A stretch of DNA of 11,618 bases. Source: a virus. Its lineage: Duplodnaviria; Heunggongvirae; Uroviricota; Caudoviricetes. Below are positions 1 to 11,618 of this stretch, one piece after another (the stretch's first letter is position 1; each line of letters starts with the position of its first letter). The stretch is taken from positions 1 to 11,618 of the IMG/VR virus record IMGVR_UViG_2585427748_000011; one strand, 5' to 3'. The notes beneath the pieces are model-generated. The model made no database searches. It saw nothing but the letters and a program-made list of their open reading frames with translations, and was not told where the DNA came from. The position numbers and the translations under genes are program-made.

Positions 1-333
1 ACTGGCATGTTTCATGATGTAACGCATGCCGGTGATGTATTGCCCCTCATGCTGACTGGCGCGGCTGTACGGGGGATTACCAAAGGCAGCACCTTTAAGC
101 TCCGCAAGACGTTCAGACCAGTCATGCGCCAGCGCGTTGTCTTCCGCAGTGTAATAAGCGGCACATTTGGCGTTATCACCATCAGTGAACAGATCCAGAA
201 CAAACGGGCCAAACAGGGTGTTAATTCCCCAGAAAATGTTGTCCGGCGTGCGCCACTGATCGCCCACTTCCTTCAGTTCATGGGCTGGTTTGTTTCGCAG
301 CTCCACCAGCGCCTGGCAATATTTATTACTCAT
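1..333 (-). CDS. Phage Dam-family DNA N6-adenine methyltransferase, N-terminal part only (gene continues beyond left window edge)
   Basis: Reverse-complement translation from ATG at 333-331: MSNKYCQALVELRNKPAHELKEVGDQWRTPDNIFWGINTLFGPFVLDLFTDGDNAKCAAYYTAEDNALAHDWSERLAELKGAAFGNPPYS..., containing an NPPY catalytic-type motif. The ATG overlaps the TAA stop of the upstream gene (coupling). Not in the ORF track because no stop lies within the window. Confidence 0.6.
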   Translation of the reverse strand, partial: MSNKYCQALVELRNKPAHELKEVGDQWRTPDNIFWGINTLFGPFVLDLFTDGDNAKCAAYYTAEDNALAHDWSERLAELKGAAFGNPPYSRASQHEGQYITGMRYIMKHAS

Positions 334-827
334 TAAGCCCCCACGTAATTCCCTGACAGATACCACTCTTCACCCGATGCAGCGCGCTTGCTGCTTTTCC
401 GTAAGCACCGCTCACGATGCGCCAGAAAATTGTTTCGTTCTGGCTGGGAGTGGCTTTCACGGAATGCCTCCATCCACACCGTTGCAGCTCGACGGAATAA
501 GCCCCTGGACTCCAGTTCTTCAGCCTGGCGGGTCAGGCACAAAATCACCCGGGGGTCGTTAGTGCCGACATAGAAATTGCGCACAGGTCTGGTTTCACGA
601 ACTGGTTGTGGTTCCGGCTCCTGCGCTCTCTCAGTCAGGCGCGGGAAATGTCTGCGTGTATCCCCTTCACAACGGTGAGCCACACGCCCACTCTGACGTA
701 ACTTGCTTGCTGACTGCAGAACGCGCTGCCGTGAGTAACCAGCAAAAGCATCTGCAATGTCTCCGGAAGTACACCCCGGATGGGCTTCAATGAATTTCTG
801 AACGTCATTCAAAAGACTCATGATCAC
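333..827 (-). CDS. Hypothetical phage protein, 164 aa (same length as K-12 CPS-53 YfdN as I recall; function unknown)
   Basis: ORF in track; ATG at 827-825 overlaps the TGA stop of the upstream replication gene (ATGA coupling); its own stop overlaps the start of the methyltransferase gene. Confidence 0.6.
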   Translation of the reverse strand: MIMSLLNDVQKFIEAHPGCTSGDIADAFAGYSRQRVLQSASKLRQSGRVAHRCEGDTRRHFPRLTERAQEPEPQPVRETRPVRNFYVGTNDPRVILCLTRQAEELESRGLFRRAATVWMEAFRESHSQPERNNFLAHRERCLRKSSKRAASGEEWYLSGNYVGA

Positions 828-1765
828 CCCCTGAATCCTGCCGGGATCTGGCTGTAGTCCACGTTGTCGTAACTGGCTTTGAAGTACGGGTCTTCGCGTT
901 TTTCGGTGTACGTGCTGACGGACGGTGATAAGCGCAGGGAAAGCTCATCCCATTTTTCCCGCAACTTCGACGGGCTGAGCACGTTACGGCACCAGAACGG
1001 ATCGCGGCTGACGCGGCTGTACATCTCGCAGATTTGTTTGTGAGTACGACCATCCTGCACACACATCAGGCGAATTTCGTTTGCCCAGGCTGTCCAGTTC
1101 GGTTCTTTGGGACGAACCACCTCGCCGTCACATTCGGCGGCTTGCTCGTACAGGGCGATGATTTTTTTCCAGAGCCACTGTGCGCAGGTCAAATCATCCT
1201 GCGTTCCCCACTGGCGCTTTTTAGGGCTGAATACAACCGCATCAGGATGGCGAGTTAAAAAATCCTGTTCATCCGTCTGCGTGTCCGGTTGCGAAGCGTC
1301 CGGACGAGAAGGTTTTTTATCTGACGGATCATGTTTTGATTTTACTGACGGATCCCCGCCAGATTCTGACGGGTGAAAACCCGCTTTTTTGCCAGATTTC
1401 GACGCATCAAATTTTGACGGGTCAGATTTTGATGCGTCAGATTTTGACGGGTCAGAATCTGACAGTTGAGAAAATGCCGCTGCCTGAAGCTTCGCAACGT
1501 TAAGCTGATAAACATTCGACGCATTGCGGTTACCCTGGCGACGCGCCTTACGTGTTAACCAGCCTTCTGCTTCCAGCCGTGCGATAGCCGTCCTGACGGT
1601 ACTCATCCCCGCGCCAATCTGACGGGCAATAGTTTCAATTGATGGCCAGCACACACCTTCGTCATTACTGAAATCAGCCAGGCGGGCCATAATTGCCACG
1701 CTGGATAATTTCATGCCTGATGCAGCGCAACCATCCCATACATAGCCGGTTAATTTAGTGCTCAT
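824..1765 (-). CDS. Phage replication initiation protein (O-like; N-terminal winged helix-turn-helix domain, repeat-encoded linker)
   Basis: 313-aa ORF; N-terminus (SVAIMARLADFSNDEGVCWPSIETIARQIGAGMSTVRTAIARLEAEGWLTRKA) resembles the HTH domain of phage replication initiators. Central low-complexity linker SDPSKSDASKSDPSKFDASKSG is encoded by tandem DNA repeats. RBS GAGG 7 nt upstream of ATG at 1765. Confidence 0.7.
   Translation of the reverse strand: MSTKLTGYVWDGCAASGMKLSSVAIMARLADFSNDEGVCWPSIETIARQIGAGMSTVRTAIARLEAEGWLTRKARRQGNRNASNVYQLNVAKLQAAAFSQLSDSDPSKSDASKSDPSKFDASKSGKKAGFHPSESGGDPSVKSKHDPSDKKPSRPDASQPDTQTDEQDFLTRHPDAVVFSPKKRQWGTQDDLTCAQWLWKKIIALYEQAAECDGEVVRPKEPNWTAWANEIRLMCVQDGRTHKQICEMYSRVSRDPFWCRNVLSPSKLREKWDELSLRLSPSVSTYTEKREDPYFKASYDNVDYSQIPAGFRG
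1318..1470. repeat. Iteron-like direct repeats (candidate replication origin) inside the replication initiator gene
   Basis: Core CTGACGG/TTGACGG/TTGATGC recurs at 1321, 1345, 1366, 1399, 1414, 1429, 1444, 1459. The last five copies are spaced exactly 15 bp apart (unit approx TTTTGACGGGTCAGA). Confidence 0.5.
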
Positions 1766-1774
1766 GACCGACCT

Positions 1775-2113
1775 CTATTTCCCTGAATTTACGACGAAAC
1801 TGTTCGAGCGGGCTGAAGCACTCATGCTCATAGCCTTCGCGGAGGTAGATAACTCGTTGTGTTTCCGGCTCCCAACGAATGACTCTGACGGGCACTCCGT
1901 AGTGATCTTTGAACCAGCGGTTAACTTGTCGCAAAGGACTGTCTCCTTCTGCCGGTTGAAATCACCCACAGCCCACTCAGCAAAGCTGTGGGTTACAATT
2001 TCCCTGTCACCTGGTACATTAACTGCATAGCAATACTCCACCTTCGCTTTTCCACCCGGTACAGGAAGCGCAATCAGTTGCGAGCGACGGTAGTGTGTTG
2101 TTAAACTGTTCAT
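1775..2113 (-). CDS. Hypothetical protein, 112 aa
   Basis: ATG at 2113-2111 overlaps the TGA stop of the upstream cII-position gene (ATGA). Stop at 1775-1777 is followed by GAGG and the ATG of the replication gene, so it fits the coupled minus-strand operon. Strand choice over the overlapping + ORF 1758..2030 rests on this context. Confidence 0.5.
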
Positions 2114-2718
2114 GCGTTAGTTTCTCCACAGTCACGACACGCCACGGCGCCCGGAGCTGCACACTCGCGGGCGTCATTACTTTCTGAAATGCAAAAGATT
2201 TTGTAGACCAGTGCTGCATGCTCCTGCAGCTTCGAAATTGAGAGATACAGCTCGTCGTTAATTGCTGTCTTCTCATGCGGTTCCACCACACCGTCTTCGA
2301 TTGCCGAACGAATCTGTCTGGAATAACTGCCAATCTGTTCAATGACTTCCAGCAGGCGCTGGTTAATATCGGCGTTGTCCACATCCTCGACGTCAGGAAG
2401 AGACACAAAGACGCCATTTGCAGACTGCGCCACAGCGTCAGCAATGAAGTGAGTTCCACCAGCACGTTGCAAAATCATTGCCCATCCCAGCGGGAAAATC
2501 TGATCGCCATCGGCACGAAGACGGTTAAATAATGCGTTTTCTGTTACATCCAGCCAGTCAGCTGCTTCAGCGTAACCACCCGGCAACGCTGCGATAGTTT
2601 TTCTGACAGCTTTCACGTACCACTCAGGCTGTTTTTCTACTTTCCAGTGATGCTTACCCACGGTTAGCCTCATCGTTCTGTGGTTTCTGTTAATCGATTT
2701 ATCCATTAGATTTTTCAT
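2110..2718 (-). CDS. Regulatory protein at the cII position of the immunity region (possibly phage CII/CP76- or YdaT-like); start uncertain
   Basis: Track ORF 2110..2775 begins with GTG at 2775 and would overlap the cro-like gene by 77 nt. In-frame ATGs at 2718 (MKNLMDKSI...) and 2706 (MDKSI..., overlapping the cro-like TAA) are more plausible. Functional call is by position and vague family recollection only. Confidence 0.5.
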
Positions 2719-2899
2719 AAAGCTCAGGTTTAAATGGCAACCGTCCGCAAGTTCTATATGCAGCTTCTGCTGCACGTCCTTTTGGAATTAACTGGCCCGG
2801 ACGGTTTCGCCACTGATAAACGGCTTCAGTTGTTATGCCGAAAAAAGCAGCAACTTTCTCAATACTGCCGAAGTAGCTTTCGATATCGTCAGTTGTCAT
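2699..2899 (-). CDS. Cro-like small HTH DNA-binding protein (Cro/YdaS-like)
   Basis: 66 aa, MTTDDIESYFGSIEKVAAFFGITTEAVYQWRNRPGQLIPKGRAAEAAY has an HTH signature. Divergent from the repressor gene; RBS GGAGGG 3-5 nt upstream of ATG at 2899. Confidence 0.65.
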   Translation of the reverse strand: MTTDDIESYFGSIEKVAAFFGITTEAVYQWRNRPGQLIPKGRAAEAAYRTCGRLPFKPELYEKSNG

Positions 2900-2996
2900 A
2901 CGCCCTCCAAACTAAGTTTTATTAGATGCTAATTACAAATCTATCTTTGGTCAATAAAAACTAAGATTACTTAGCAATTCAAGAAATGGTGCTCCT
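2900..2996. promoter_or_regulatory. Divergent immunity control region (OR-like): candidate PR-like promoter for the cro-like operon plus operator dyads
   Basis: On the minus strand: -35 TTGACC (plus coords 2949-2954), 17-bp spacer, -10 TAGCAT (2926-2931). 11-bp dyad AAACT-A-AGTTT at 2909-2919 over the predicted start/leader; partial copy AACTAAGAT at 2959-2967; CTAAG-ATTA-CTTAG at 2961-2974. No convincing repressor promoter found by eye. Confidence 0.4.
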
Positions 2997-3623
2997 ATGG
3001 AAACGGTTGGTCAGCGTATAAAAGCTCTGAGAAGAGTTACCGGAACGTCCCAGAAAGAATTGGGTAAATTTTGTGGAGTAAGCGACGTTGCTGTGGGGTA
3101 CTGGGAGAAAGACATCAATACCCCTGGTGGGGAGGCACTTTCGAAATTAGCGAAGTTCTTCAATACGTCAATAGATTACATTCTTTATGGTGCTGAGTTT
3201 GAAGGCAAACTCGTCACAAACATGCGCAGAGTTCCTGTAATATCGTGGGTTCAGGCTGGGCAGTTTACTGAGTGCAGGGCAGCAGAAGTGTTTAGTGAAG
3301 TGGACAAGTGGGTAGATACATCATTAAAGATTGGTGATAACTCATTTGCATTAGAGGTTAAAGGTGACTCCATGACTAACCCTAATGGCCTCCCAACAAT
3401 ACCAGAAGGCGCAACAGTGATTGTAGATCCAGATGCAGAACCTCGTCATGGAAAAATAGTCATCGCTCGACTTGATGGAACAAACGAAGCTACAGTAAAA
3501 AAATTAGTCATCGATGGCCCTCAAAAGTTTTTAGTGCCATTAAATCCTCGGTATCCCAACATCCCTATCAATGGTAATTGCCTTATCATTGGTGTAGTCA
3601 AAGGAGTTCAATACGAACTCTAA
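2997..3623 (+). CDS. CI-type prophage repressor (N-terminal HTH_XRE, C-terminal S24 LexA-like autopeptidase)
   Basis: 208 aa. N-terminus QRIKALRRVTGTSQKELGKFCGVSDVAVGYWEKD is an XRE-type HTH. C-terminal domain has the Ser motif GDSM and downstream Lys (ATVKKLV) of the S24 Ser-Lys dyad, and a LexA-like cleavage site VQAG-QF. Confidence 0.85.
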   Translation: METVGQRIKALRRVTGTSQKELGKFCGVSDVAVGYWEKDINTPGGEALSKLAKFFNTSIDYILYGAEFEGKLVTNMRRVPVISWVQAGQFTECRAAEVFSEVDKWVDTSLKIGDNSFALEVKGDSMTNPNGLPTIPEGATVIVDPDAEPRHGKIVIARLDGTNEATVKKLVIDGPQKFLVPLNPRYPNIPINGNCLIIGVVKGVQYEL

Positions 3624-3644
3624 GACCTCTCTTCTCTAACTAAG

Positions 3645-3678
3645 GCACCGAACTAAGAAAAGTTTGGTGTTTTCTCTT
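3645..3678 (+). terminator. Candidate intrinsic terminator downstream of the repressor gene
   Basis: Stem CACCGAACT (3646-3654) pairs with AGTTTGGTG (3661-3669), 9 bp with one G-U; loop AAGAAA; followed by TTTTCTCTT (3670-3678). The reverse strand has no U-tract. Confidence 0.5.
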
Positions 3679-3705
3679 GCCATAATAACTAAGTTAAGTT
3701 AGATT
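3677..3705 (+). promoter_or_regulatory. Candidate pL-like early-left promoter with operator dyad in the spacer (OL-like)
   Basis: -35 TTGCCA (3677-3682), 17-bp spacer, -10 TAGATT (3700-3705). Spacer contains dyad TAACT-A-AGTTA (3686-3696), same core as the dyad at 2909-2919. Identified by eye only. Confidence 0.3.
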
Positions 3706-3910
3706 TTATATCAAAGATAACGAACAGGCAGGACGCCCACGAAGTAGCCGCCTGGGGCATATGAAGTCCAGGATGATTCGTTGAGTCATGTTGTGCCACT
3801 AGGCACTCATGTTAAAGCAGGTGTATGAAATGAAAGTCCAGATTTTAAACAATAACTGTGAAGTCGTTTGGGCGTAAAACATGACCGCGCGTAGACCAAG
3901 GGAGGAAAAA

Positions 3911-4087
3911 GTGGGAATAGTTAGAAATCAAGCAGATATATTGAAAATCAGCTCTGAATTGCTTGGAGTTTTGAAAAGTGAGCTCACCGCACATGGCATC
4001 GAGCCCACTGACGAAAATTTAAGTTGGGTTTTGTCGATTATTCAACAATCACTCAAGCCCAGCCTCAGCAAACTTTTTATCGAGTAG
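3911..4087 (+). CDS. Small hypothetical protein (58 aa from GTG 3911; 68 aa if ATG 3881)
   Basis: Strong SD GGGAGG (3899-3905) 6 nt before in-frame GTG 3911; ATG 3881 has no SD. AT-rich island; overlaps the 3' end of a convergent minus-strand ORF by 39 bp. Confidence 0.35.
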   Translation: MGIVRNQADILKISSELLGVLKSELTAHGIEPTDENLSWVLSIIQQSLKPSLSKLFIE

Positions 4088-4240
4088 TGCTTCGAACTTA
4101 TCGTAAAGCTTGCTTATGTCGTCTATCGGGTTTTCTGACGTACTGTAATTTTTATCTGATGTCATGGCAGCAGTCTGATATGCAGTGTGAGTCTTAACCG
4201 ATAGTTGGAATAAATAAAGAATTTTTTCTTCTTTGGTCAT
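4049..4240 (-). CDS. Small hypothetical protein, 63 aa (MTKEEKILYLFQLSVKTHTAYQTAAMTSDKNYSTSENPIDDISKLYDKFEALLDKKFAEAGLE)
   Basis: ATG at 4240-4238 preceded on the minus strand by AAGGAA at about 8 nt spacing. The track ORF 4049..4282 starts further upstream without an RBS. AT-rich, convergent with the repressor and the + strand small ORF. Confidence 0.45.
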   Translation of the reverse strand: MTKEEKILYLFQLSVKTHTAYQTAAMTSDKNYSTSENPIDDISKLYDKFEALLDKKFAEAGLE

Positions 4241-4495
4241 AACTATTTCCTTCTTGGCTATATGAAAACACCAAGATACCACCGAGCCTGAAGTGGTGAA
4301 AAGACAGGCACATAACAGCTAAGTATTTTCAACCAGAGAGAATCCTTAGCGTTGTGGTGAATGCGGCTCAGCGCACGCGGGTTAAGGTTGAGGCTGACAG
4401 TCGACCTTCTGTGGATACCCACCCGCCTGGTGTGCAACTTTCGCCAGGCACCGGGAGGCACCCGGCACCACAACTTTATGCTGTGTGTAGTCCTC

Positions 4496-4541
4496 GCGGT
4501 ACCAGTTTGTACACTTGCTTCCGGCTGGTACCGCTCTTTTT
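4496..4541 (+). terminator. Terminator-like hairpin in the untranslated leader (possible 3' end of a small RNA or an antiterminated terminator)
   Basis: Perfect 10-bp stem GCGGTACCAG (4496-4505) / CTGGTACCGC (4525-4534), 19-nt loop, then TCTTTTT (4535-4541). The loop is long for a canonical terminator. Confidence 0.45.
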
Positions 4542-4630
4542 ACAAAACAGAGAAGAACATCACCGGACGACGGGCTCATAACCCAATCCATCCGGGCGGC
4601 TGCCACCGCAGGTGTTCTTCTCTGTTTTGT
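4542..4630 (+). other. Long perfect inverted repeat (18 bp arms, 53-bp spacer) predicted to form an extended RNA stem; candidate RNase III processing site or structured regulatory RNA
   Basis: ACAAAACAGAGAAGAACA (4542-4559) is the exact reverse complement of TGTTCTTCTCTGTTTTGT (4613-4630). The stem can extend with G-U pairs into the preceding U-tract. No ORF with an RBS spans it. Confidence 0.4.
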
Positions 4631-4678
4631 GGAGAAACCAACCGACCTTGCAGGGTCGATATGATTAGGAGCAGAAAA

Positions 4679-5041
4679 ATGGCTAGCGAACGCAGTACTG
4701 ATGTGCAGGCATTTATTGGGGAGCTGGACGGCGGCGTATTTGAAACCAAAATCGGCGCAGTTCTCAGTGAAGTCGCTTCCGGTGTGATGAACACGAAAAC
4801 CAAAGGTAAGGTCTCACTCAACCTGGAAATCGAACCATTTGATGAGAACCGTGTGAAAATCAAACACAAACTCTCATATGTTCGCCCGACTAACCGCGGG
4901 AAAATTTCCGAAGAAGACACCACCGAAACGCCGATGTATGTCAATCGCGGTGGTCGCCTGACTATTCTGCAGGAAGACCAGGGACAATTACTGACTCTTG
5001 CCGGTGAACCTGACGGAAAACTCCGCGCAGCAGGTCATTAA
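4679..5041 (+). CDS. Hypothetical phage early protein, 120 aa (YfdP-like by length and position)
   Basis: ATG 4679 preceded by AGGAG (4667-4671, spacing 7). The track ORF 4361..5041 carries a 106-codon Arg/Cys-rich N-terminal extension across the structured region, judged non-coding. Confidence 0.7.
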   Translation: MASERSTDVQAFIGELDGGVFETKIGAVLSEVASGVMNTKTKGKVSLNLEIEPFDENRVKIKHKLSYVRPTNRGKISEEDTTETPMYVNRGGRLTILQEDQGQLLTLAGEPDGKLRAAGH

Positions 5042-5106
5042 TATCGTTCTTAATTAACCGATTATTTATCTCATCACTGAATATCTTTATATAGTGAGGA
5101 CTTATT

Positions 5107-5931
5107 ATGTCTCAGAACTTAGACGCAACCGCAATTAATCAAATCCATGCCCTTATTTCTGCTCAGGGTGTTAATGAAATTATCAGTAAGATTGGTGCCG
5201 ATGCTGTGGCATTGCCTGAGAATTTCCGCATTCATGATCTGGAAAAATTTAATTTAAATCGCTTCCGTTTCCGTGGTGCGCTTTCCACTGCCAGCATCGA
5301 TGACTTTACCCGTTATTCTAAAGATCTTGCAGATGAAGGCACCCGCTGCTTTATCGATGCCGATAATATGCGTGCCGTCAGTGTGCTTAACCTGGGTACT
5401 ATTGGTGAACCAGGTCACGCAGATAACACCGCCACACTCAAACTGAAAAAGACAGCACCGTTCTCTGCTCTGTTGTCTGTTAACGGCGAGCGTAACTCCC
5501 AGAAGTCACTGGCAGAATGGATTGAAGACTGGGCCGACTATCTTGTGGGCTTTGATGCTAATGGTGACGCTATTAAGGCAACAAAAGCGGCTGCGGCGGT
5601 CCGTAAAATCACGATTGAAGCAAACCAGACCGCTGATTTTGAAGATAATGACTTCAGCGGCAAACGCTCCCTGATGGAGTCTGTCGAAGCGAAGACCAAA
5701 GATATTATGCCAGTGGCATTTAAATTTAAATGCGTTCCGTTTGAAGGCCTGAAAGAACGTCCGTTTAAATTACGCCTCAGCATTATCACTGGCGATCGTC
5801 CTGTACTGGTTCTGCGCATTATTCAGCTGGAAGCAGTGCAGGAAGAAATGGCTAACGAATTTCGTGATCTGCTTGTTGAGAAATTTAAAGACAGCAAAGT
5901 AGAAACCTTTATTGGTACTTTCACCGCCTGA
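5107..5931 (+). CDS. Hypothetical phage protein, 274 aa (YfdQ/DUF2303-like by recollection)
   Basis: ATG 5107 preceded by GTGAGGA (5094-5100); clean 274-aa ORF; family assignment is from memory of length and gene order in CPS-53. Confidence 0.7.
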
Positions 5932-5943
5932 TTTCATTACTGC

Positions 5944-5965
5944 AAATGCCCCTGCGGGGGCATTT
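5944..5965 (+). terminator. GC-rich hairpin between genes (weak terminator or mRNA-stabilising stem)
   Basis: AAATGCCCC (5944-5952) / GGGGCATTT (5957-5965), 9-bp perfect stem with UGCG loop. The 3' flank ATGGAAAC lacks a real U-tract. Confidence 0.3.
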
Positions 5966-6059
5966 ATGGAAACATAATTGACTCAATAATCGCCTGATGG
6001 CGAGGGTTTTCTTTAACCAAAATTCAGCGCGGTGCAGCGCATATAAAGTGGAGAACAAA

Positions 6060-6596
6060 ATGTCATTTATTAAAACTTTTTCCGGGAAGCATTTTTATTA
6101 TGACAGGATAAATAAAGACGACATCGTGATTAACGATATCGCGGTTTCCCTTTCAAATATCTGCCGCTTTGCCGGTCATCTTTCTCACTTCTACAGTGTC
6201 GCCCAACATGCGGTGCTTTGCAGCCAGCTGGTGCCGCAGGAATTTGCTTTTGAAGCGTTAATGCATGATGCAACAGAAGCGTATTGCCAGGATATTCCCG
6301 CTCCACTGAAACGCCTTCTTCCTGACTATAAACGGATGGAAGAAAAAATAGACGCCGTAATCCGTGAGAAATACGGGTTACCCCCGGTTATGAGCACGCC
6401 CGTGAAATATGCCGATCTCATCATGCTGGCAACCGAACGCCGCGATCTCGGGCTTGATGATAGCTCTTTCTGGCCTGTACTGGAAGGTATCCCGGCAACA
6501 GAGATGTTCAAAGTGATTCCACTGTCGCCAGGCCATGCCTACGGGATGTTTATGGAACGTTTTAACGAGTTATCGGAGTTACGCAAATGCGCATGA
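6060..6596 (+). CDS. HD-domain 5'-deoxynucleotidase (YfbR/YfdR-like dNMP phosphohydrolase)
   Basis: 178 aa from ATG 6060 (GGAG at 6049-6052); HD-domain signature H...HD...D in VAQHAVLCSQLVPQEFAFEALMHDATEAYCQDIPAPLKRLL. The track ORF start at 5997 lacks an RBS. Confidence 0.75.
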   Translation: MSFIKTFSGKHFYYDRINKDDIVINDIAVSLSNICRFAGHLSHFYSVAQHAVLCSQLVPQEFAFEALMHDATEAYCQDIPAPLKRLLPDYKRMEEKIDAVIREKYGLPPVMSTPVKYADLIMLATERRDLGLDDSSFWPVLEGIPATEMFKVIPLSPGHAYGMFMERFNELSELRKCA

Positions 6597-6937
6597 ATGT
6601 TTTCGAAATGGAAGGGTTTCTTCGCGGGAAATGTGTACCACGAGATCTGAAAGTGAATGAAACAAATGCTGAGTATCTGGTGCGTAAATTCGATGAAGTA
6701 CGTGCTGAGGCTCGCAACGAGGGTATTAACTATACCGCAAGCCGTCTTGCTGCGGCTTTCAATCACGGATTTATCAATAAGTCTTTACGTGAAGTTTTCG
6801 ACGTTACACGCATGATTCTGTCAGCGAAAGAAGAGTTGGCTAATGAACCACACCCGATTGATGGCCTGTCCGGTGAATATGCGGAGAAATCCCTAGAAGA
6901 ATGGGCGGAACAGATTCGCAAAGGAGGCAACCAGTGA
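6587..6937 (+). CDS. Hypothetical early protein X, 116 aa (C-terminus ...EEWAEQIRKGGNQ)
   Basis: GGAG (6575-6578) 8 nt before ATG 6587; alternative ATG 6593 forms ATGA with the upstream stop. Its stop TGA overlaps the GTG start of the next gene (GTGA). Confidence 0.6.
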   Translation: MRMNVFEMEGFLRGKCVPRDLKVNETNAEYLVRKFDEVRAEARNEGINYTASRLAAAFNHGFINKSLREVFDVTRMILSAKEELANEPHPIDGLSGEYAEKSLEEWAEQIRKGGNQ

Positions 6938-7614
6938 GCAAGATTGACTATCAAGAACTGCGCGAGGCGGCGGAACAGGCAACGCAAGATGAATGGGTAG
7001 CATATATTTTGCCGGGTCATAACGGCATTTATCCTGCGCGCACGTCTGAGGGTAGGCATTGCGGATACTTTATTGACTGGCCTGGCGTCTGTCAGGGGCG
7101 GGAGAGCATCAGCATCAGAACCTACGCAGTGAATTGCAATGACGCATGGCTAAACACCGAAGGTGATGACATCTCCGGCTCATACGTTAAGTACAAAGAC
7201 CATCAGGAAGTGGTTGCCGCTCTTGAGGCCAAGTGCGCGGCGCTGGCTGCTGAGAATGCGGGAATAAAGTCTGCAATTCCAAAATCACGGGATATTGAGG
7301 ATGACAATGACAATATGGATGACGTATCTCTCGCGGAAGACTTCGGGTTCAATCATGCAATAGAACGGATGAGGAGACAGATACCTGAAACGCCAACCAC
7401 TGATGCTTTCCTGGCTGAAGTCCGGGCGCAGGGGGTGGATGCTGCTATAGAAGCTGCAAAAAATCTGGTGGCCCAAGAATATGAGTGTAAGGATTTCAAA
7501 GCGGCGCAGAGTGATTGCTGTATGCACCCTGGTTCAGACCTGGTAGGGAAGGTTGAAATGACTGAGTGGTTAGTTGACTTTGCTGCCCAGCTTCGCAAAG
7601 GAGGCAATCAGTGA
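6934..7614 (+). CDS. Hypothetical early protein Y, 226 aa, mosaic (N-terminus like protein Z, C-terminus like protein X)
   Basis: AAGGAGG (6921-6927) 6 nt before GTG 6934. N-terminus SKIDYQELREAAEQA; C-terminus ...DFAAQLRKGGNQ; coiled-coil-like middle. The track start ATG 6901 has no RBS. Confidence 0.6.
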   Translation: MSKIDYQELREAAEQATQDEWVAYILPGHNGIYPARTSEGRHCGYFIDWPGVCQGRESISIRTYAVNCNDAWLNTEGDDISGSYVKYKDHQEVVAALEAKCAALAAENAGIKSAIPKSRDIEDDNDNMDDVSLAEDFGFNHAIERMRRQIPETPTTDAFLAEVRAQGVDAAIEAAKNLVAQEYECKDFKAAQSDCCMHPGSDLVGKVEMTEWLVDFAAQLRKGGNQ

Positions 7615-8147
7615 GCGAAATTAATTACCAGGCACTGCGTGAGGTGGCGGAACGTGCAATTCCAGCAATGGAACGCCTGTTAATGTTGCCAGTTGATGAT
7701 GATTTGTTAAGTGAACAGGAACTTAAAGATTACGGTGTGGATATTGATGCGCTCAATGCCTTCAAATTTCTGACCGGACCAGAAACCGTGCTGGCACTAC
7801 TGGATGAACGGGAAAGAAACCAGCAATACATCAAACGCCGCGACCAGGAGAACGAGGATATTGCGCTTACGGTTGGGAAGCTGCGCGTTGAGCTTGAAGC
7901 AGCAAAATCAAAACTCAACGAGCAGCGCGAGTATTACGAGGGAGTTATCTCTGATGGGTGCAAGCGTATTGCTGAACTGGAAGCGCGGGAAGTTCAATTA
8001 CCGACTCGCTACGACCTTCGATATGGACACCCGATAAATGCAGATGAGCGACAAGTCATGATACCTAAAGAAAATGGCAGTTGGCTTTACCTGATTGACC
8101 TAGAACACGCATTACGCGTCGCTGACATTCGCATCAAAGGAGAGTGA
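7611..8147 (+). CDS. Hypothetical early protein Z, 178 aa (N-terminus SEINYQALREVAERA; coiled-coil-like C-terminal half)
   Basis: AAGGAGG (7598-7604) 6 nt before GTG 7611, which overlaps the stop of Y (GTGA). The junction sequence is near-identical to the X/Y junction. Confidence 0.6.
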   Translation: MSEINYQALREVAERAIPAMERLLMLPVDDDLLSEQELKDYGVDIDALNAFKFLTGPETVLALLDERERNQQYIKRRDQENEDIALTVGKLRVELEAAKSKLNEQREYYEGVISDGCKRIAELEAREVQLPTRYDLRYGHPINADERQVMIPKENGSWLYLIDLEHALRVADIRIKGE

Positions 8148-8148
8148 T

Positions 8149-8664
8149 ATGGCGTTAACACACCACGAACTCTGTCAGATTGCGTACAAGTTCCTTAAGC
8201 GCAACGGGTTCAAGGTTTGCTTTCATGACCGCTTTGTTGCTGTAACCAGTACCGGAGAACAGCCAGATGCTATGGGATTCAGAAATTCAGCATCATGCCT
8301 GATAGAGGCGAAGTGTTCTCGTGCTGACTTGTTGGCAGATAGAAAAAAGCGTTTCCGTAAAAATCCCTCACTTGGCATGGGCGACTGGCGATTCTTTATT
8401 AGTGAGCCGGAAATTATTTCAGTTGAGGATTTACCTCCCGGCTGGGGATTACTTCACGTTGTTAACGGAAGAGTACGGAAAGTACATGGATGGCCCAGGG
8501 GTAATTGCTGTTGGGGTAATCCTGACGATAAGCCATTTACCGGGAATAAGCAGGTTGAATGCGATTACATGTTATCTGCATTAAGGCGCATGGAGCTAAG
8601 AGGACACCTTAATGAAATATATGACGGTGTAATTGTTAATAAGAAAGAAGGAAACGCAGCATGA
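8149..8664 (+). CDS. PD-(D/E)xK nuclease-superfamily protein (MmcB-like by recollection)
   Basis: 171 aa; RBS AGGAGAG before ATG 8149; motif D...E-x-K in GEQPDAMGFRNSASCLIEAKCSRAD. Confidence 0.55.
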   Translation: MALTHHELCQIAYKFLKRNGFKVCFHDRFVAVTSTGEQPDAMGFRNSASCLIEAKCSRADLLADRKKRFRKNPSLGMGDWRFFISEPEIISVEDLPPGWGLLHVVNGRVRKVHGWPRGNCCWGNPDDKPFTGNKQVECDYMLSALRRMELRGHLNEIYDGVIVNKKEGNAA

Positions 8665-9530
8665 CCACTTTAACCGACAAAGAACTGATTAAAGAAATCA
8701 GAGAGCGTATAGGCAGCCTGGACGTCCGAGACAATATTGAGCGTCGGGCTTATGAAATTGCTCTGGCATCGCTGGAACGCGAACAGATTCGCCACGAGCA
8801 TGCCAAATGGTCTGACTCCACATTTGGCTGCGTTGGCCCCATTGGTCCGCTGAAACATCTCTCAAAAGAGGCACTGGAAGCCGCAGCCGAACCAGACGAT
8901 CTTAGCGAGTGGGCTGATATGCAGTTTCTGTTGTGGGATGCACAGCGCCGTGCTGGCATCAGCGATGCTGAAATTACCGCTGCTATGGAAGATAAATTGA
9001 AGATCAACATGGAACGCCAGTGGCCTGAACCAAAAGATGGTGAGCCTCGCTTGCACATTAAAGAACCCGGCAACTCTCCGGTAACTCCGGCTCGCCTGCC
9101 TGGTGGTTTCACCATTGAGGATGCGAAGGCATTACATGAAGACCTGGTTCGCAGCCACATAAGCCAGGCTTTAAGTGGTGAAAAGATGAAAAAGAACGAT
9201 CGCGATGCTGATTTGCGCTGGATTCATGGCGTAATAGTTCAGGCAGCGTGGTTTGTAAAAGCATCACTGGAGCAAAATGCACTATCGGGCAACTATCCGG
9301 TAACTCCGGATGGTTGGATAAGCTGTAGTGAGCGAATGCCGAAAAAGAATCAGAACGTACTTATTTCGGTGAATTTCGATAGTGATCTGGTTGAGCCGCT
9401 AATATGCTCCGCACGCTATACCGGAAGTACCTTTCGGCGAGGACAAGCAACGATTAAGCCGGGTAATGGTATTGAGCAGGCAACCCACTGGATGCCGCTG
9501 CCAGAACCGCCGCAGGAGGTGAATCAATGA
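8661..9530 (+). CDS. Two-domain phage protein: N-terminal MazG-like NTP pyrophosphohydrolase-type region (DUF550-like), C-terminal DUF551-like domain
   Basis: 289 aa; ATG 8661 overlaps the upstream stop (ATGA), RBS GAAGGAAA. N-terminal acidic helical motif EALEAAAE...EWADMQFLLWDAQRRAGISDAEI; C-terminal WISCSERMPKK...THWMPLPEPP. Domain names are from memory. Confidence 0.55.
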   Translation: MTTLTDKELIKEIRERIGSLDVRDNIERRAYEIALASLEREQIRHEHAKWSDSTFGCVGPIGPLKHLSKEALEAAAEPDDLSEWADMQFLLWDAQRRAGISDAEITAAMEDKLKINMERQWPEPKDGEPRLHIKEPGNSPVTPARLPGGFTIEDAKALHEDLVRSHISQALSGEKMKKNDRDADLRWIHGVIVQAAWFVKASLEQNALSGNYPVTPDGWISCSERMPKKNQNVLISVNFDSDLVEPLICSARYTGSTFRRGQATIKPGNGIEQATHWMPLPEPPQEVNQ

Positions 9531-9610
9531 GCTGGCCTGATGCAATCGTAACTCTGGGGATGGTATTCGCAGTAGCGTTTGTTGTGTACTCGATTTGTCG
9601 ATGGGGATAA
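9527..9610 (+). CDS. Small hydrophobic peptide, 27 aa (MSWPDAIVTLGMVFAVAFVVYSICRWG), predicted single transmembrane helix
   Basis: Strong SD AGGAGGT (9514-9520) 6 nt before ATG 9527, which overlaps the upstream TGA (ATGA). Too short to appear in the ORF track. Confidence 0.45.
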   Translation: MSWPDAIVTLGMVFAVAFVVYSICRWG

Positions 9611-9614
9611 CCAC

Positions 9615-9857
9615 ATGTTCGCTTTGATTCAACGCGGTCAGATATACACGGACAGAGCTGGATACCCCGTGGTGATTACTCGCATCACTGAGCACTCAGT
9701 GTTCTTTCGACGGATGGACGGACGATCCGGGCGGGTACGCATTGGTGAGTTAAACTGCCTGTTCGAACATATTGACCACCAGGAGTACCGCAAAATTCTC
9801 GCGGACACTGAGCAGGAAAAGCACCTGAAAAAATTACGAGCCATAAAAAGGAAGTAA
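9615..9857 (+). CDS. Hypothetical small phage protein, 80 aa (possibly DUF4222-like)
   Basis: ATG 9615 with weak SD GGGGA; the track ORF starts at TTG 9579 inside the preceding peptide ORF. Basic C-terminus KHLKKLRAIKRK. Confidence 0.5.
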   Translation: MFALIQRGQIYTDRAGYPVVITRITEHSVFFRRMDGRSGRVRIGELNCLFEHIDHQEYRKILADTEQEKHLKKLRAIKRK

Positions 9858-9860
9858 AGA

Positions 9861-10007
9861 ATGAATAAAGCATTTGAACGATGGGTCCACCAGCGTTACG
9901 GCAATCGCTATGACCTGACGCGAGATGTTGACGGCTTCTACTGTCGTGAAGTTGTGAAGCGAATGTTTGAAGTGTGTTGCCACTGCCGTGGGCTGAGTGT
10001 TGTGTGA
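9861..10007 (+). CDS. Small Cys-rich protein, 48 aa (MNKAFERWVHQRYGNRYDLTRDVDGFYCREVVKRMFEVCCHCRGLSVV)
   Basis: AAGGAAG 6 nt before ATG 9861; its stop lies beside the GAGG RBS of xis. Four Cys in the C-terminal 20 residues. Not in the ORF track (below length cutoff). Confidence 0.4.
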   Translation: MNKAFERWVHQRYGNRYDLTRDVDGFYCREVVKRMFEVCCHCRGLSVV

Positions 10008-10015
10008 GGTAATAC

Positions 10016-10252
10016 ATGGGCAATGTGATTCAACTGGCTCCCAATGAATGGGTTTGTGAAAGCGTTCTTATCGCAATTACCGGGCTCAAACCAGGCACAA
10101 TTCTTCGGGCCCGGAAAGAATGCTGGATGGTTGGAAGAGAGTATATTCACGTATCACCAGACGGTAATCCAAAGCCTTCCAGTGAATGTATGTATAACAG
10201 AAAAGCAATAGATGCCTGGGTCGCCTCAATGAAAAACAAACAACCCAGGTGA
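10016..10252 (+). CDS. xis: Excisionase-like protein (Xis)
   Basis: 78 aa immediately upstream of the integrase; MGNVIQLAPNEWVCESVLIAITGLKPGTILRARKECWMVGREYIHVSPDGNPKPSSECMY matches my recollection of enterobacterial phage excisionase-like proteins; RBS GAGG. Confidence 0.7.
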   Translation: MGNVIQLAPNEWVCESVLIAITGLKPGTILRARKECWMVGREYIHVSPDGNPKPSSECMYNRKAIDAWVASMKNKQPR

Positions 10253-10307
10253 TTTAATATCATGAAATATGTAAGCTCGTATCGCTCTTGGGCGTCTGGA
10301 GGTATCG

Positions 10308-11618
10308 ATGGATAAAGTCAAATATCCAACAGGCGTCGAAAACCACGGCGGCACATTACGCATCTGGTTTAATTTTAAAGGTAAACGTGTCAGGGAAAAT
10401 CTTGGTGTCCCTGACACTGCCAAGAACAGGAAGATCGCCGGGGAACTGCGGACATCAGTATGTTTTGCCATCCGCACAGGAAGCTTTGATTATGCTGCAC
10501 AGTTCCCTGACTCCCCCAACCTTCAGGCTTTTGGGGTAAGTAAAAAAGAAATTACGGTGAAGGAACTTGAAGAAAAGTGGCTGGATCTGAAACGAATGGA
10601 AATCTCTGCAAATGCATTCAATCGCTATGAATCCGTTGCAAGAACGATGGTTCCGAAAATTGGAGGCAGTAGACTGGTGTCATCGGTAACCAAAGAGGAA
10701 TTGCTGTATATCAGGAAAGATTTGCTGACCGGGTATCAGAATTCAATGAAAAACAAAGCAGCAAAAGGACGGAGCGTTGTTACTGTAAATTATTACATGA
10801 CGACAATCGCTGGAATGTTTCAGTTTGCTGCAGATCACGGTTACTTAGAAGCAAATCCCTTCCAGGGAATTAAGCCTCTTAAAAGAGCCAGGGCAGAGCC
10901 AGATCCGCTAACTCGTGACGAATTTATTCGCCTGATAGATGCTTGCCGACATCAGCAGACGAAAAACCTGTGGTCATTGGCTGTGTACACAGGAATGCGT
11001 CACGGTGAACTGGTCTCCCTGGCCTGGGAAGATATCGATCTGAAGGCAGGAACAATTACCATCAGGCGCAATTATACGAAACTTGGTGAGTTCACTCTAC
11101 CGAAAACTGAAGCAAGCACAAACAGGGTTGTGCACCTTATCCAGCCCGCTATCAGTGTCCTGAAAAATCAGGCTGAAATGACAAGACTGGGTAAGCAGTA
11201 CAACATCAAGGTGCAACTACGTGAATATGGACGTTCAGTGAACCATGAATGTACTTTCGTGTTTAACCCTCAAGTGGTTAGAAAAAGCGAACAGGTAGGT
11301 TTTGTCTACAAAGTCGATTCTGTAGGTGACTCATGGGAAACAGCCATTAAGCGTGCAGGGATCAGGCATCGAAAGGCATACCAGTCACGACACACTTATG
11401 CGTGCTGGTCATTATCTGCCGGAGCAAACCCAAGCTTCATTGCCAGCCAGATGGGCCATGCAAGTGCCCAGATGGTATTCAATGTATACGGAGCATGGAT
11501 GACTGACAGCAATGCAGAACAGATCGCAATGCTGAATCAGAAGCTGACAGATTATGTCCCAATGATGCCCCATAGTCACCAAAGTGACACCAGAGGCTTA
11601 TTAAAATCAGTAAGTTAA
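10308..11618 (+). CDS. int: Phage tyrosine integrase (lambda-Int family site-specific recombinase)
   Basis: 436 aa; N-terminal arm-binding-type region (GTLRIWFNFKGKRVRENLG). Catalytic-domain motifs: R in YTGMRHGEL, H-x-x-R-type motif at AYQSRHTYACW, nucleophile Tyr in VFNVYGAW. RBS GGAGG 5 nt upstream. Stop codon is the last 3 bases of the window. Confidence 0.9.
   Translation: MDKVKYPTGVENHGGTLRIWFNFKGKRVRENLGVPDTAKNRKIAGELRTSVCFAIRTGSFDYAAQFPDSPNLQAFGVSKKEITVKELEEKWLDLKRMEISANAFNRYESVARTMVPKIGGSRLVSSVTKEELLYIRKDLLTGYQNSMKNKAAKGRSVVTVNYYMTTIAGMFQFAADHGYLEANPFQGIKPLKRARAEPDPLTRDEFIRLIDACRHQQTKNLWSLAVYTGMRHGELVSLAWEDIDLKAGTITIRRNYTKLGEFTLPKTEASTNRVVHLIQPAISVLKNQAEMTRLGKQYNIKVQLREYGRSVNHECTFVFNPQVVRKSEQVGFVYKVDSVGDSWETAIKRAGIRHRKAYQSRHTYACWSLSAGANPSFIASQMGHASAQMVFNVYGAWMTDSNAEQIAMLNQKLTDYVPMMPHSHQSDTRGLLKSVS

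Follow-up and report, generated by a model that had tools for sequence, protein, structure and literature searches.

The closest described relatives of the RNA analyzed here are STnc100 and PasD, prophage-encoded small RNAs (sRNAs) that are regarded as one family (bioRxiv 10.64898/2026.05.13.724894). PasD of enteropathogenic Escherichia coli (EPEC) has been verified by Northern blotting as a discrete RNA with Hfq-dependent stability and RIL-seq partners (PMC8550237), and PasD2 is part of the most abundant CsrA chimera (bioRxiv 10.64898/2026.08.12.744399). In pathogenic E. coli, members of this family rank among the most abundant sRNAs encoded by prophages. Other phage RNAs that invite comparison are lambda 6S and StxS, which are short transcripts running from PR' to tR' and function as Hfq sRNAs, and lambda PreS, which comes from the early-left operon (PMC7547250; bioRxiv 10.1101/2024.10.31.621285). 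Here, we describe an 11,618-nucleotide (nt) stretch of tailed-phage DNA (Caudoviricetes; IMG/VR record IMGVR_UViG_2585427748_000011, positions 1 to 11,618), called the window below, and in particular its positions 4283-4678, for which the original prediction, made from the sequence alone, had proposed a candidate small RNA or an antitermination/attenuation element. We find that these 400 bases are two conserved phage RNA modules in tandem, which are separate and independently mobile. Module 1 (about 4321-4541) is an sRNA gene of the STnc100/PasD family, a new member of a known family, and module 2 (4537-4635) is apparently a separate, undescribed RNA class and the novel part of the region.

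The candidate small RNA was borne out by an Rfam scan, in which module 1 matches STnc100 (RF02076) above threshold (48.5 bits against a gathering score of 47, E = 3.8e-08) over the full length of the model, positions 1-206, and the RNA has an intrinsic terminator of its own. The same model gives sub-threshold matches in the phages SfV, ST64B, phiES15, SJ46, and P1. With STnc100, PasD1, and PasD2 of EPEC prophages, this copy shares an invariant 22-mer (CACCGGGAGGCACCCGGCACCA), the closing helix (helix P1), the helices H1 and H5, the terminator, and the location in a prophage. The same layout of core, linker, and terminator is seen in free-standing members of the family. Described copies have Q, stx, nanS, and holin genes as late-region neighbors, in contrast to this one, which is found without a recognizable promoter of its own in the early-left region behind the candidate PL, and it differs from them by an H1 of the GCGGC/GC(A)CGC type and an RprA-like linker. 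The 22-mer is present, exactly, in at least 120 viral contigs that form 53 clusters at 92% identity; as it served as search seed, its invariance is biased, and at loci picked by a different motif the only variants seen are AGGC(A/U/G) in the loop. On the 5' side, the core is preceded by a hairpin, possibly a 5' processing or stabilizing element, that has a counterpart of other sequence at the equivalent place in ST64B.

The helices of the core, P1, H1, H4, and H5 (Table 1), all covary. Across 35 non-redundant copies (this copy and 34 relatives), P1, H1, and H5 are 97.6% paired, compared with 42-51% when partners are slid, and the core covariation score is 0.204, compared with 0.013-0.164 for slid controls, with none of 500 shuffles scoring as high. 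H1 keeps its bulged A in the canonical version (CCCCC/GG(A)GGG), in the type found here, and in a third type (CUUUC/GAAAG), while H5 reads GGUGG-AGGCA-CCACC in phage Flotzy and helix P1 reads GUUGCGGUG/CACCGCAAC in phage P1. Furthermore, we observe a pseudoknot between the segment 3' of H1 and the loop of H4, which is retained in at least 10 sequence versions, among them AAGGCUGG/UCAGCCUU, CCAGUC/GACUGG, AUCAGCG/UGCUGGU, UCUGGUGU/ACACCGGG, AGACUGACAAA/UUUGUCAGUCU, and UGCCAGGUCG/UGACCUGGCA. When each type is represented once, cognate strands form a mean of 6.9 bp versus 4.75 +/- 0.25 for permuted strands (0 of 5000 permutations reach the observed value). A preprint on the family makes no mention of a pseudoknot or of promoters (bioRxiv 10.64898/2026.05.13.724894), and we found no other description, so that the covarying pseudoknot appears to be a new element in the STnc100/PasD family.

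The core is joined to its terminator by a 21-nt single-stranded linker, in which UGCUGUGUGUAGUC (4479-4492) is identical to nt 62-75 of E. coli RprA at 14/14 positions. The identity is longer in phiES15 and Flotzy (16-24 nt, with the terminator also shared), and in these two phages the RprA model (RF00034) gives sub-threshold matches of 41 bits against a gathering score of 70. Unlike RprA, the RNA described here lacks the RprA 5' hairpins, gives no match to the RprA covariance model within 4100-4800 (E<=10), and shows no above-chance pairing with the rpoS leader. The linker is a candidate pairing or Hfq/RNase E-interaction segment. As an observation on RprA itself, K-12 rprA (L239 473-578) resembles the phage family at both ends when compared with L023, L061, L132 (Flotzy), and L006 (phiES15): nt 30-48 (GCAUGGAAAUCCCCUGAG) match the 5' side of P1/H1 of canonical STnc100 copies, with 0-2 of 500 shuffles as good, and the stretch comprising nt 59-82 and beyond resembles the linker and terminator in Flotzy and phiES15. 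One possibility is that RprA is a collapsed relative of the prophage RNA family, another is the reverse; the link suggests an evolutionary tie between an sRNA of the core genome and an RNA of phages.

The terminator starts 21 nt after helix P1, its hairpin has a predicted energy of -20.5 kcal/mol, and its stem covaries among homologs. It is absent from the list of a pattern scan because its unusually large loop of 17-19 nt exceeds the 8 nt of that scan. Two further resemblances had been suggested for this segment. One is to the core of the sRNA DicF: GCGGUACCAGUUU(G)UAC, inside the 5' arm of the terminator, matches nt 17-32 of K-12 DicF at 15/16 positions with one gap, a marginal match that 11 of 1000 shuffles score as well. 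The DicF model (RF00039) gives no match within 4100-4800 at E<=10, and the 5' pairing region of DicF is absent, so that we read the likeness as a real local resemblance and not as family membership; what the two RNAs share is that they are sRNAs embedded in an immunity-proximal prophage operon. The other is to boxA. The boxA-like string CGCTCTTTTTACAA is indeed present at 4532-4545, where it consists of the 3' arm of the terminator and the T-run; among homologs, the segment aligned to 4530-4547 varies (CGCTCTT, CGTCCTT, CGCCCTT, CACCTTT, CATTTTT) and the T-run alone is conserved. With its CGCTCTT part unconserved, the string was rejected as a boxA or nut element.

With respect to genomic position, about 15 of the 53 clusters carry the core behind a strong promoter of its own (TTGACx-17/18-TAAATT), the -10 element of which ends about 7 nt before helix P1. 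This promoter resembles lambda PR', TTGACT-17-TAAATT. The terminator follows 25-35 nt after P1 in most clusters, and the next gene downstream of promoter-bearing copies, 270-470 nt away, encodes a holin, with four Pfam families represented; in one case, the upstream gene is the Q antiterminator. The order in Klebsiella phage 2 LV-2017 is Q, terminator, promoter, STnc100 (81 bits), terminator, two tRNAs, tRNA-like element, terminator, and holin. Since they lie between Q and holin after a PR'-like promoter, the promoter-bearing copies occupy the PR'-tR' slot. They share this slot with lambda 6S and StxS, which are likewise by-products of operon leaders and terminators, and the copy in the window is in a PreS-like early-left position. 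In contrast to these short and simple RNAs, to which no sequence relationship was found, the STnc100/PasD family has a pseudoknotted core of about 125 nt. Some viral contigs carry a same-strand tandem pair of STnc100-type cores at a fixed spacing, either 484 nt apart (L023 3233/3717, L040 923/1407, L054, and L074) or about 270 nt apart (L127 1486/1761 and L079). In addition, in promoter-bearing late-region copies (L133 1633-1685, L013, L041, and L071), a conserved short open reading frame (ORF; e.g., MFKERNGKNKCILVNR, with ...CTGGTAAATCGGTAG kept) stands after the core and before the next terminator.

These positions bear on whether the core could itself be a cis-acting, protein-independent processive antiterminator like HK022 put that replaces a missing N, folding on the nascent PL transcript, binding RNA polymerase, and letting it pass the RNA's own terminator to reach xis and int. 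The region sits at the position of lambda nutL-N or HK022 putL, early in the early operon and ahead of the sole strong terminator in an operon that ends in xis-int, and RefSeq annotates a Q-type late antiterminator and no N in the identical copy of E. coli KSC1031, where the prophage is seen in full. The same core heads early operons with other downstream genes (kil-gam in phiES15, tciABC-ban in phage P1), and typical base-pairing sRNAs have simpler folds than this invariant, pseudoknotted one. Despite these similarities, many members in Q-encoding phages are placed immediately between a strong promoter of the lambda PR' kind and holin. A factor-independent antiterminator in this place would make the lysis genes constitutive, which would be lethal to lysogens, and therefore the terminator of the RNA must stop unmodified polymerase in Q phages. 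Moreover, PasD accumulates as a discrete Hfq-dependent RNA (PMC8550237), the HK022 immunity region with putL and putR gives no match to the STnc100 model in a one-way comparison, and five helices plus a pseudoknot in about 125 nt contrast with the two stem-loops of about 70 nt that make up put (PMC9378689); the boxA-like string is unconserved, unlike what would be expected of a nut-type site. We consider a put-like role of the core quite improbable. For RNA-based antitermination as originally suggested there is no positive evidence, and the position of the family directly after late promoters in Q-dependent phages argues against it. The accompanying statement that no N-like arginine-rich ORF is present holds in so far as none is annotated in the identical prophage; the 68-amino-acid (aa) ORF at 3881-4087, of a PHROG of unknown function, does start arginine-rich (MTARRPREEK).

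Module 2 begins within the T-run of this terminator. The 18-bp perfect inverted repeat that had been placed at 4542-4630 is real, with 25-nt arms (4542-4566 and 4606-4630) that are 88% complementary and perfect over 18 nt, and it grows to 4537-4635 when G-U pairs are counted; it is not merely another hairpin, being the closing stem of a separate conserved module, a three-way junction with a long arm and a variable second hairpin. Together with the preceding terminator, module 2 is 92.2% paired in 13 diverged copies compared with 38-51% when slid, with 16 compensatory pairs compared with 1-5, and none of 500 shuffles reaches the score. G-U pairs fix its strand as plus. We observe the 20-mer ACGGGCUCAUAAYCCAAUCC of the arm in at least 120 viral contigs and 25 species-representative genomes, and module 2 spans at least 14 enterobacterial genera, those with the 20-mer including Escherichia, Shigella, Citrobacter, Enterobacter, Kosakonia, Mixta, Raoultella, Leclercia, Phytobacter, Erwinia, and Pantoea. 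Outside Enterobacterales, the 20-mer was seen in two assemblies. In a Chryseobacterium sp. contig (L251), it stands in the full enterobacterial class-A context described below, making contamination or transfer possible, and in an Acidobacteriaceae metagenome-assembled genome (L255), the arm is closed by another stem (CUCCAAUCG/GAUUGGAG) in an unrelated context.

Two architectures of module 2 can be distinguished. In class A, to which this copy belongs, the terminator and its U-run are followed by the long stem with the invariant arm and the variable hairpin, then by GGAGAAAC, a GC hairpin, and the ribosome-binding site (RBS) of the first gene in the operon, with GC hairpins of different sequence in relatives (e.g., GGCGGYGGCAGCCGCC) at the position of 4643-4658. 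In class B, the element lies 6 nt after tRNA genes in late regions and has a 6-7-bp acceptor-like stem that ends in G-CCA. The tip of the invariant arm (CGACGGGCTCATAACCC/CGACGGGCUCAUAACCC) is identical at 16/17 positions to the anticodon arm of the E. coli initiator tRNA gene metZ (CGTCGGGCTCATAACCC/CGUCGGGCUCAUAACCC), including its three G-C pairs and the CUCAUAA loop. The loop and its GGG/CCC stem are nearly invariant, in contrast to the helices around them, all of which covary, and the loop variants found (e.g., UUCAUAC and UUCAUAU) retain CAU. Class B copies aside, the likeness to initiator tRNA (metZ/W/V) is confined to this arm: unlike the tRNA, module 2 has no D arm and no T-loop, and the acceptor is replaced in this copy by a stem of about 25 bp within an mRNA leader, followed by GGAGAAAC, an acceptor stem with unpaired NCCA being absent. 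As a tRNA or tmRNA, module 2 was rejected, with ARAGORN and the Rfam tRNA model silent here and in seven related loci, where adjoining true tRNAs were called. It has no Rfam match at E<=10 in this DNA, nor at E<=0.1 in relatives, and in a targeted full-text search of the literature on initiator-tRNA mimics in prophages we found no description of it; a literature search for ST64B sRNAs likewise returned nothing relevant.

Known tRNA-like RNAs include anticodon-arm mimics, as in the thrS operator, and stable RNAs that are transcribed together with clusters of phage tRNA genes. The near-invariance of the arm amid covarying helices, its identity to metZ, and the existence of a second architecture, which lies within phage tRNA arrays and has an acceptor-like stem and a G-CCA encoded in the DNA, would all suit a decoy or sensor for factors that act on the initiator-tRNA anticodon arm, serving anti-defense or translation hijacking and not as a passive processing site. 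Candidate factors are IF3 and the 30S P site or, alternatively, PIN nucleases of the VapC type with tRNA-fMet as their target. Such cleavage is known for VapC of Shigella and Salmonella (PMC7180214), the genera that SfV and ST64B infect. The proposal nevertheless has a basis that is purely sequence, neither ARAGORN nor Rfam sees module 2 as a tRNA, and this copy has no acceptor end and no CCA; a single copy in an mRNA leader would be a weak stoichiometric decoy, and ST64B has U at the A37-equivalent position and a degenerate arm. We regard a decoy or sensor role as unlikely. If module 2 does engage a factor that recognizes tRNA-fMet, it would represent a novel type of RNA mimicry by phages, which would bear on phage-host conflict over tRNAs and translation initiation.

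The two modules do not depend on each other. A core is absent from 84 of 87 loci selected by the tRNA-like motif only, and 117 of 168 cores are without the motif within 1.5 kb, indicating that the modules are independent; the motif lies within this distance of the other 51 cores, and together these counts rule out strict coupling. Their order also differs, being core-terminator-motif in SfV-like phages and motif directly before core in phage P1, while in the Klebsiella phage they are 455 nt apart. Furthermore, the mEp460, cdtI, and Stx2c phages, in which the core is missing, share 4496-4678 at 98-100% identity, which places a mosaic joint at about 4496. In the ban operon of phage P1 (L003 2440-2660), a tRNA-like variant with the closing stem AGAGCAUUCU/AGGAAUGCUCU and the loop UUCAUAU directly precedes a terminator-less STnc100-type core. 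In Pantoea phage PA-1 (L134 1995-2200), GUUGUGGUGAAUCG, typical for the 5' strand of the STnc100 closing helix, stands about 35 nt past the tRNA-like arm; with no recognizable 22-mer and no Rfam match, this segment may be a strongly diverged core. A functional coupling would explain why the modules recur together in differing orders in SfV-like phages, phage P1, the Klebsiella phage, and the Pantoea phage. Such a joint interpretation, in which 4537-4635 belongs to a widespread, undescribed temperate-phage class of initiator-tRNA anticodon-arm mimics that engage a tRNA-fMet factor, as a decoy for a VapC-type anticodon nuclease or in P-site/IF3-directed translation control, and in which the adjoining, functionally coupled core is a pseudoknotted protein-binding domain instead of an ordinary base-pairing sRNA, seems doubtful to us.

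The region as a whole is structured as originally predicted, and every hairpin that had been listed was found, exactly or within one base. The 6-bp stem at 4425-4449 is H4, and the perfect 10-bp stem with U-tract at 4496-4541 is the terminator (4496-4505 paired with 4525-4534, then TCTTTTT to 4541), while the 5-bp stem given as 4452-4466 is real with coordinates one off, corresponding to H5 (CCGGG-AGGCA-CCCGG, 4451-4465). The region is also GC-richer than its flanks (0.567 for 4351-4650 versus about 0.39-0.41). Compared with shuffled sequences, the folding z-score is -5.6 for 4283-4690 (0 of 100 shuffles equal) and -6.0 for 4536-4690, but only -2.3 when the sRNA part is taken by itself. With a z-score of -4.8, the minus strand folds well too, and folding energy is therefore uninformative on strand; the plus strand is assigned because a T-run follows the hairpin at 4496-4534, because conserved helices contain many G-U pairs, and because of the Rfam match.

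The earlier statement that the stretch has no RBS-supported ORF needs the caveat that, upstream of yfdP, its frame has no stop codon as far as an ATG at 4361 (106 codons). The frame is open over this length in 16 of 19 distinct close variants, and in the identical prophage RefSeq (PGAP) places a "frameshifted hypothetical protein" pseudogene over 4354-4664, so that one could suppose a protein-coding region, either an N-terminally extended YfdP from ATG 4361 or a decayed gene, with incidental hairpins. This is very improbable. The ATG at 4361 is without an RBS, whereas the ATG of yfdP itself has AGGAG 7 nt ahead, and PHROG profiles span the 120-aa YfdP from residue 1. In-frame stops occur in 3 of the 19 variants, and the variable hairpins show indels of many lengths among relatives. 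Substitutions in the helices are compensatory and include G-U pairs, indicating selection at the RNA level, and the element is also found in non-coding leaders of unrelated operons. Given the missing RBS, the stops, and the compensatory substitutions, we conclude with the original prediction that the region is not coding. The pseudogene at 4354-4664, by which RefSeq now labels an RNA locus as frameshifted, is probably a spurious call over structured RNA.

Taken together, we explain the region as the leader of a PL operon that comprises a PasD-like sRNA with its terminator and a tRNA-like 5' untranslated region (UTR) of yfdP, a reading to which we assign a probability of roughly 0.6. It builds on the family membership, structures, covariation, gene context, and sequence identities observed here, from which we infer promoter usage, processing, Hfq/CsrA binding of this copy, and all function of module 2. 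Cleavage of the LexA-like repressor would let PL (3677-3705) fire, and most polymerases from PL would stop at 4541. Trimming of the 5' side near the 4318-4350 hairpin would leave a 3'-terminal fragment of about 190-220 nt, which, by analogy with PasD, may accumulate as a trans-acting sRNA associated with Hfq and CsrA. The terminator at 4541 would double as an attenuator for yfdPQR, xis, and int, in keeping with the attenuation element that had been proposed: the intrinsic terminator at 4496-4541 is predicted to attenuate transcription into the downstream early genes. Read-through transcripts alone would carry module 2, as the 5' UTR of yfdP, where it would most likely be a cis-acting processing, stability, or translation-control element. 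Its long duplex, with 25 consecutive predicted pairs and compensatory changes, amounts to about two turns or more of near-perfect duplex, as cut by RNase III, and is a plausible site for this enzyme, a cut by which would detach the sRNA from the mRNA. A factor that normally recognizes tRNA-fMet is the probable ligand of the invariant arm.

Several observations weigh against this explanation. If the terminator is as strong as its hairpin of -20.5 kcal/mol suggests, it leaves the expression of xis and int after induction unexplained, and this transcription past the terminator is the strongest point in favor of the antitermination idea of the original prediction. We found no promoter belonging to this copy, with no sigma-70 match of >=9/12 within 4100-4350 and a best match of 6-7/12 in a relaxed scan, and its expression therefore depends on the putative PL about 600 nt upstream, the transcript of which would have to cross a convergent 63-aa gene (4049-4240). 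In SfV and ST64B, there is a predicted terminator just upstream of the RNA, which argues for an unrecognized promoter or for read-through. In phages P1 and SJ46, the core is without a terminator and abuts the RBS of tciA inside the C1-controlled ban operon, an arrangement indicating that the core can also be a 5'-UTR element, which fits a purely trans-acting role less well; the ban operon also holds a dicF-like region and tRNAs (three tRNAs in P1). Finally, an RprA-like action on rpoS was rejected, as the duplex of the linker with the rpoS leader (-17.7) is no better than that of shuffled sequences (-18.7 +/- 2.5). Experimental handles on the family are provided by the conserved pseudoknot in the core, by the RprA-identical segments in some copies, and by the fact that many copies are the leader transcript of a late operon, ending at a terminator that Q must override.

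With respect to its setting, the window is the early control region of a lambdoid prophage of the SfV/ST64B/CPS-53 type, in which the RNA region (4283-4678) is the PL-operon leader between cI and yfdPQR…xis-int (Table 1). The sequence of the region or close relatives of it are found in 2780 of 5426 complete E. coli genomes. K-12 CPS-53 was rejected as a model for the region, since both modules are missing there and only the yfdP RBS is in common. No other convincing plus-strand terminator was found in the operon below the RNA region.

Table 1. Positions of RNA features, genes, and the candidate promoter in the window.
Feature	Position	Strand	Basis
Hairpin 5' of sRNA core, GCUAAGUAUUUUC / GAGAAUCCUUAGC	4318-4350	+	Repeat search; inside Rfam model positions 1-30
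Pseudoknotted core, STnc100/PasD	4351-4474	+	Rfam, covariation
P1 closing helix	4351-4359 with 4466-4474	+	Covariation
H1, bulged A	4363-4367 with 4373-4378	+	Covariation
Pseudoknot AAGGUUG / CAACUUU	4384-4390 with 4435-4441	+	Permutation test
H4	4425-4432 with 4442-4449	+	Covariation
Invariant 22-mer CACCGGGAGGCACCCGGCACCA	4449-4470	+	Exact match
H5, loop AGGCA	4451-4455 with 4461-4465	+	Covariation
Single-stranded linker, 21 nt	4475-4495	+	Alignment to K-12 rprA
Intrinsic terminator, 10-12-bp stem, 17-19-nt loop, UCUUUUU	4496-4541	+ only	Fold, repeat search
Module 2 closing stem, about 25 bp (with G-U)	4537-4561 with 4611-4635	+	Fold
Module 2 long arm; tip GGG[CUCAUAA]CCC at 4572-4584	4563-4595	+	Fold, metZ alignment
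Module 2 variable second hairpin	4596-4609	+	Fold
GC hairpin CGACCU-UGCA-GGGUCG, between junction and yfdP RBS	4643-4658	+	Fold
O-like replication gene	824-1765	-	PHROG/Pfam matches
CII-like gene	2110-2775	-	PHROG/Pfam matches
Cro-like gene	2699-2899	-	PHROG/Pfam matches
LexA-like (S24) cI repressor	2997-3623	+	PHROG/Pfam matches
Candidate PL promoter TTGCCA-17-TAGATT	3677-3705	+	Promoter scan
yfdP, 120 aa	RBS AGGAG 4667-4671; ATG 4679; coding sequence to 5041	+	PHROG/Pfam, RefSeq of identical prophage
yfdQ/DUF2303	5107-5931	+	PHROG/Pfam matches
yfdR	5997-6596	+	PHROG/Pfam matches
Ead/Ea22-like genes	Between yfdR and xis	+	PHROG/Pfam matches
Excisionase xis	10016-10252	+	PHROG/Pfam matches
Integrase int	From 10308	+	PHROG/Pfam matches

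The candidate PL is overlapped by an operator-like repeat, AACTAAGTTAAGTTAGAT (3687-3704), and repeats of the form ACTAAG-N5/6-TTAG are found on both sides of cI, at 2909-2974 (two copies in the cI/cro intergenic region) and at 3641-3704. The copies read AAACTAAGTTTTATTAG, AAACTAAGATTACTTAG, AACTAAGTTAAGTTAG, and ACTAAGgcaccgaACTAAG, and they overlap promoter-like sites on the minus strand (2954-2926) and on the plus strand (3677-3705). In this immunity type, the repeats probably serve as operators OR and OL, with 3677-3705 as PL, which is the likely source of the transcripts that enter the RNA region. The convergent 63-aa ORF between this promoter and the RNA region (minus strand, length counted from its ATG) belongs to phrog_2605 and is annotated in RefSeq, and transcription from PL would run antisense to it. 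It is overlapped by the plus-strand 68-aa ORF mentioned above, which belongs to phrog_15476 and is without RefSeq annotation. The right operon of this DNA gives no Rfam match to C4 antisense RNA or IsrK. The minus-strand right operons of SfV (L001 722-910) and ST64B (L005 409-597) give strong matches to C4 antisense RNA (80-82 bits) together with an IsrK match of 64 bits, pointing to a P1/Gifsy-like immunity RNA pair in these phages.

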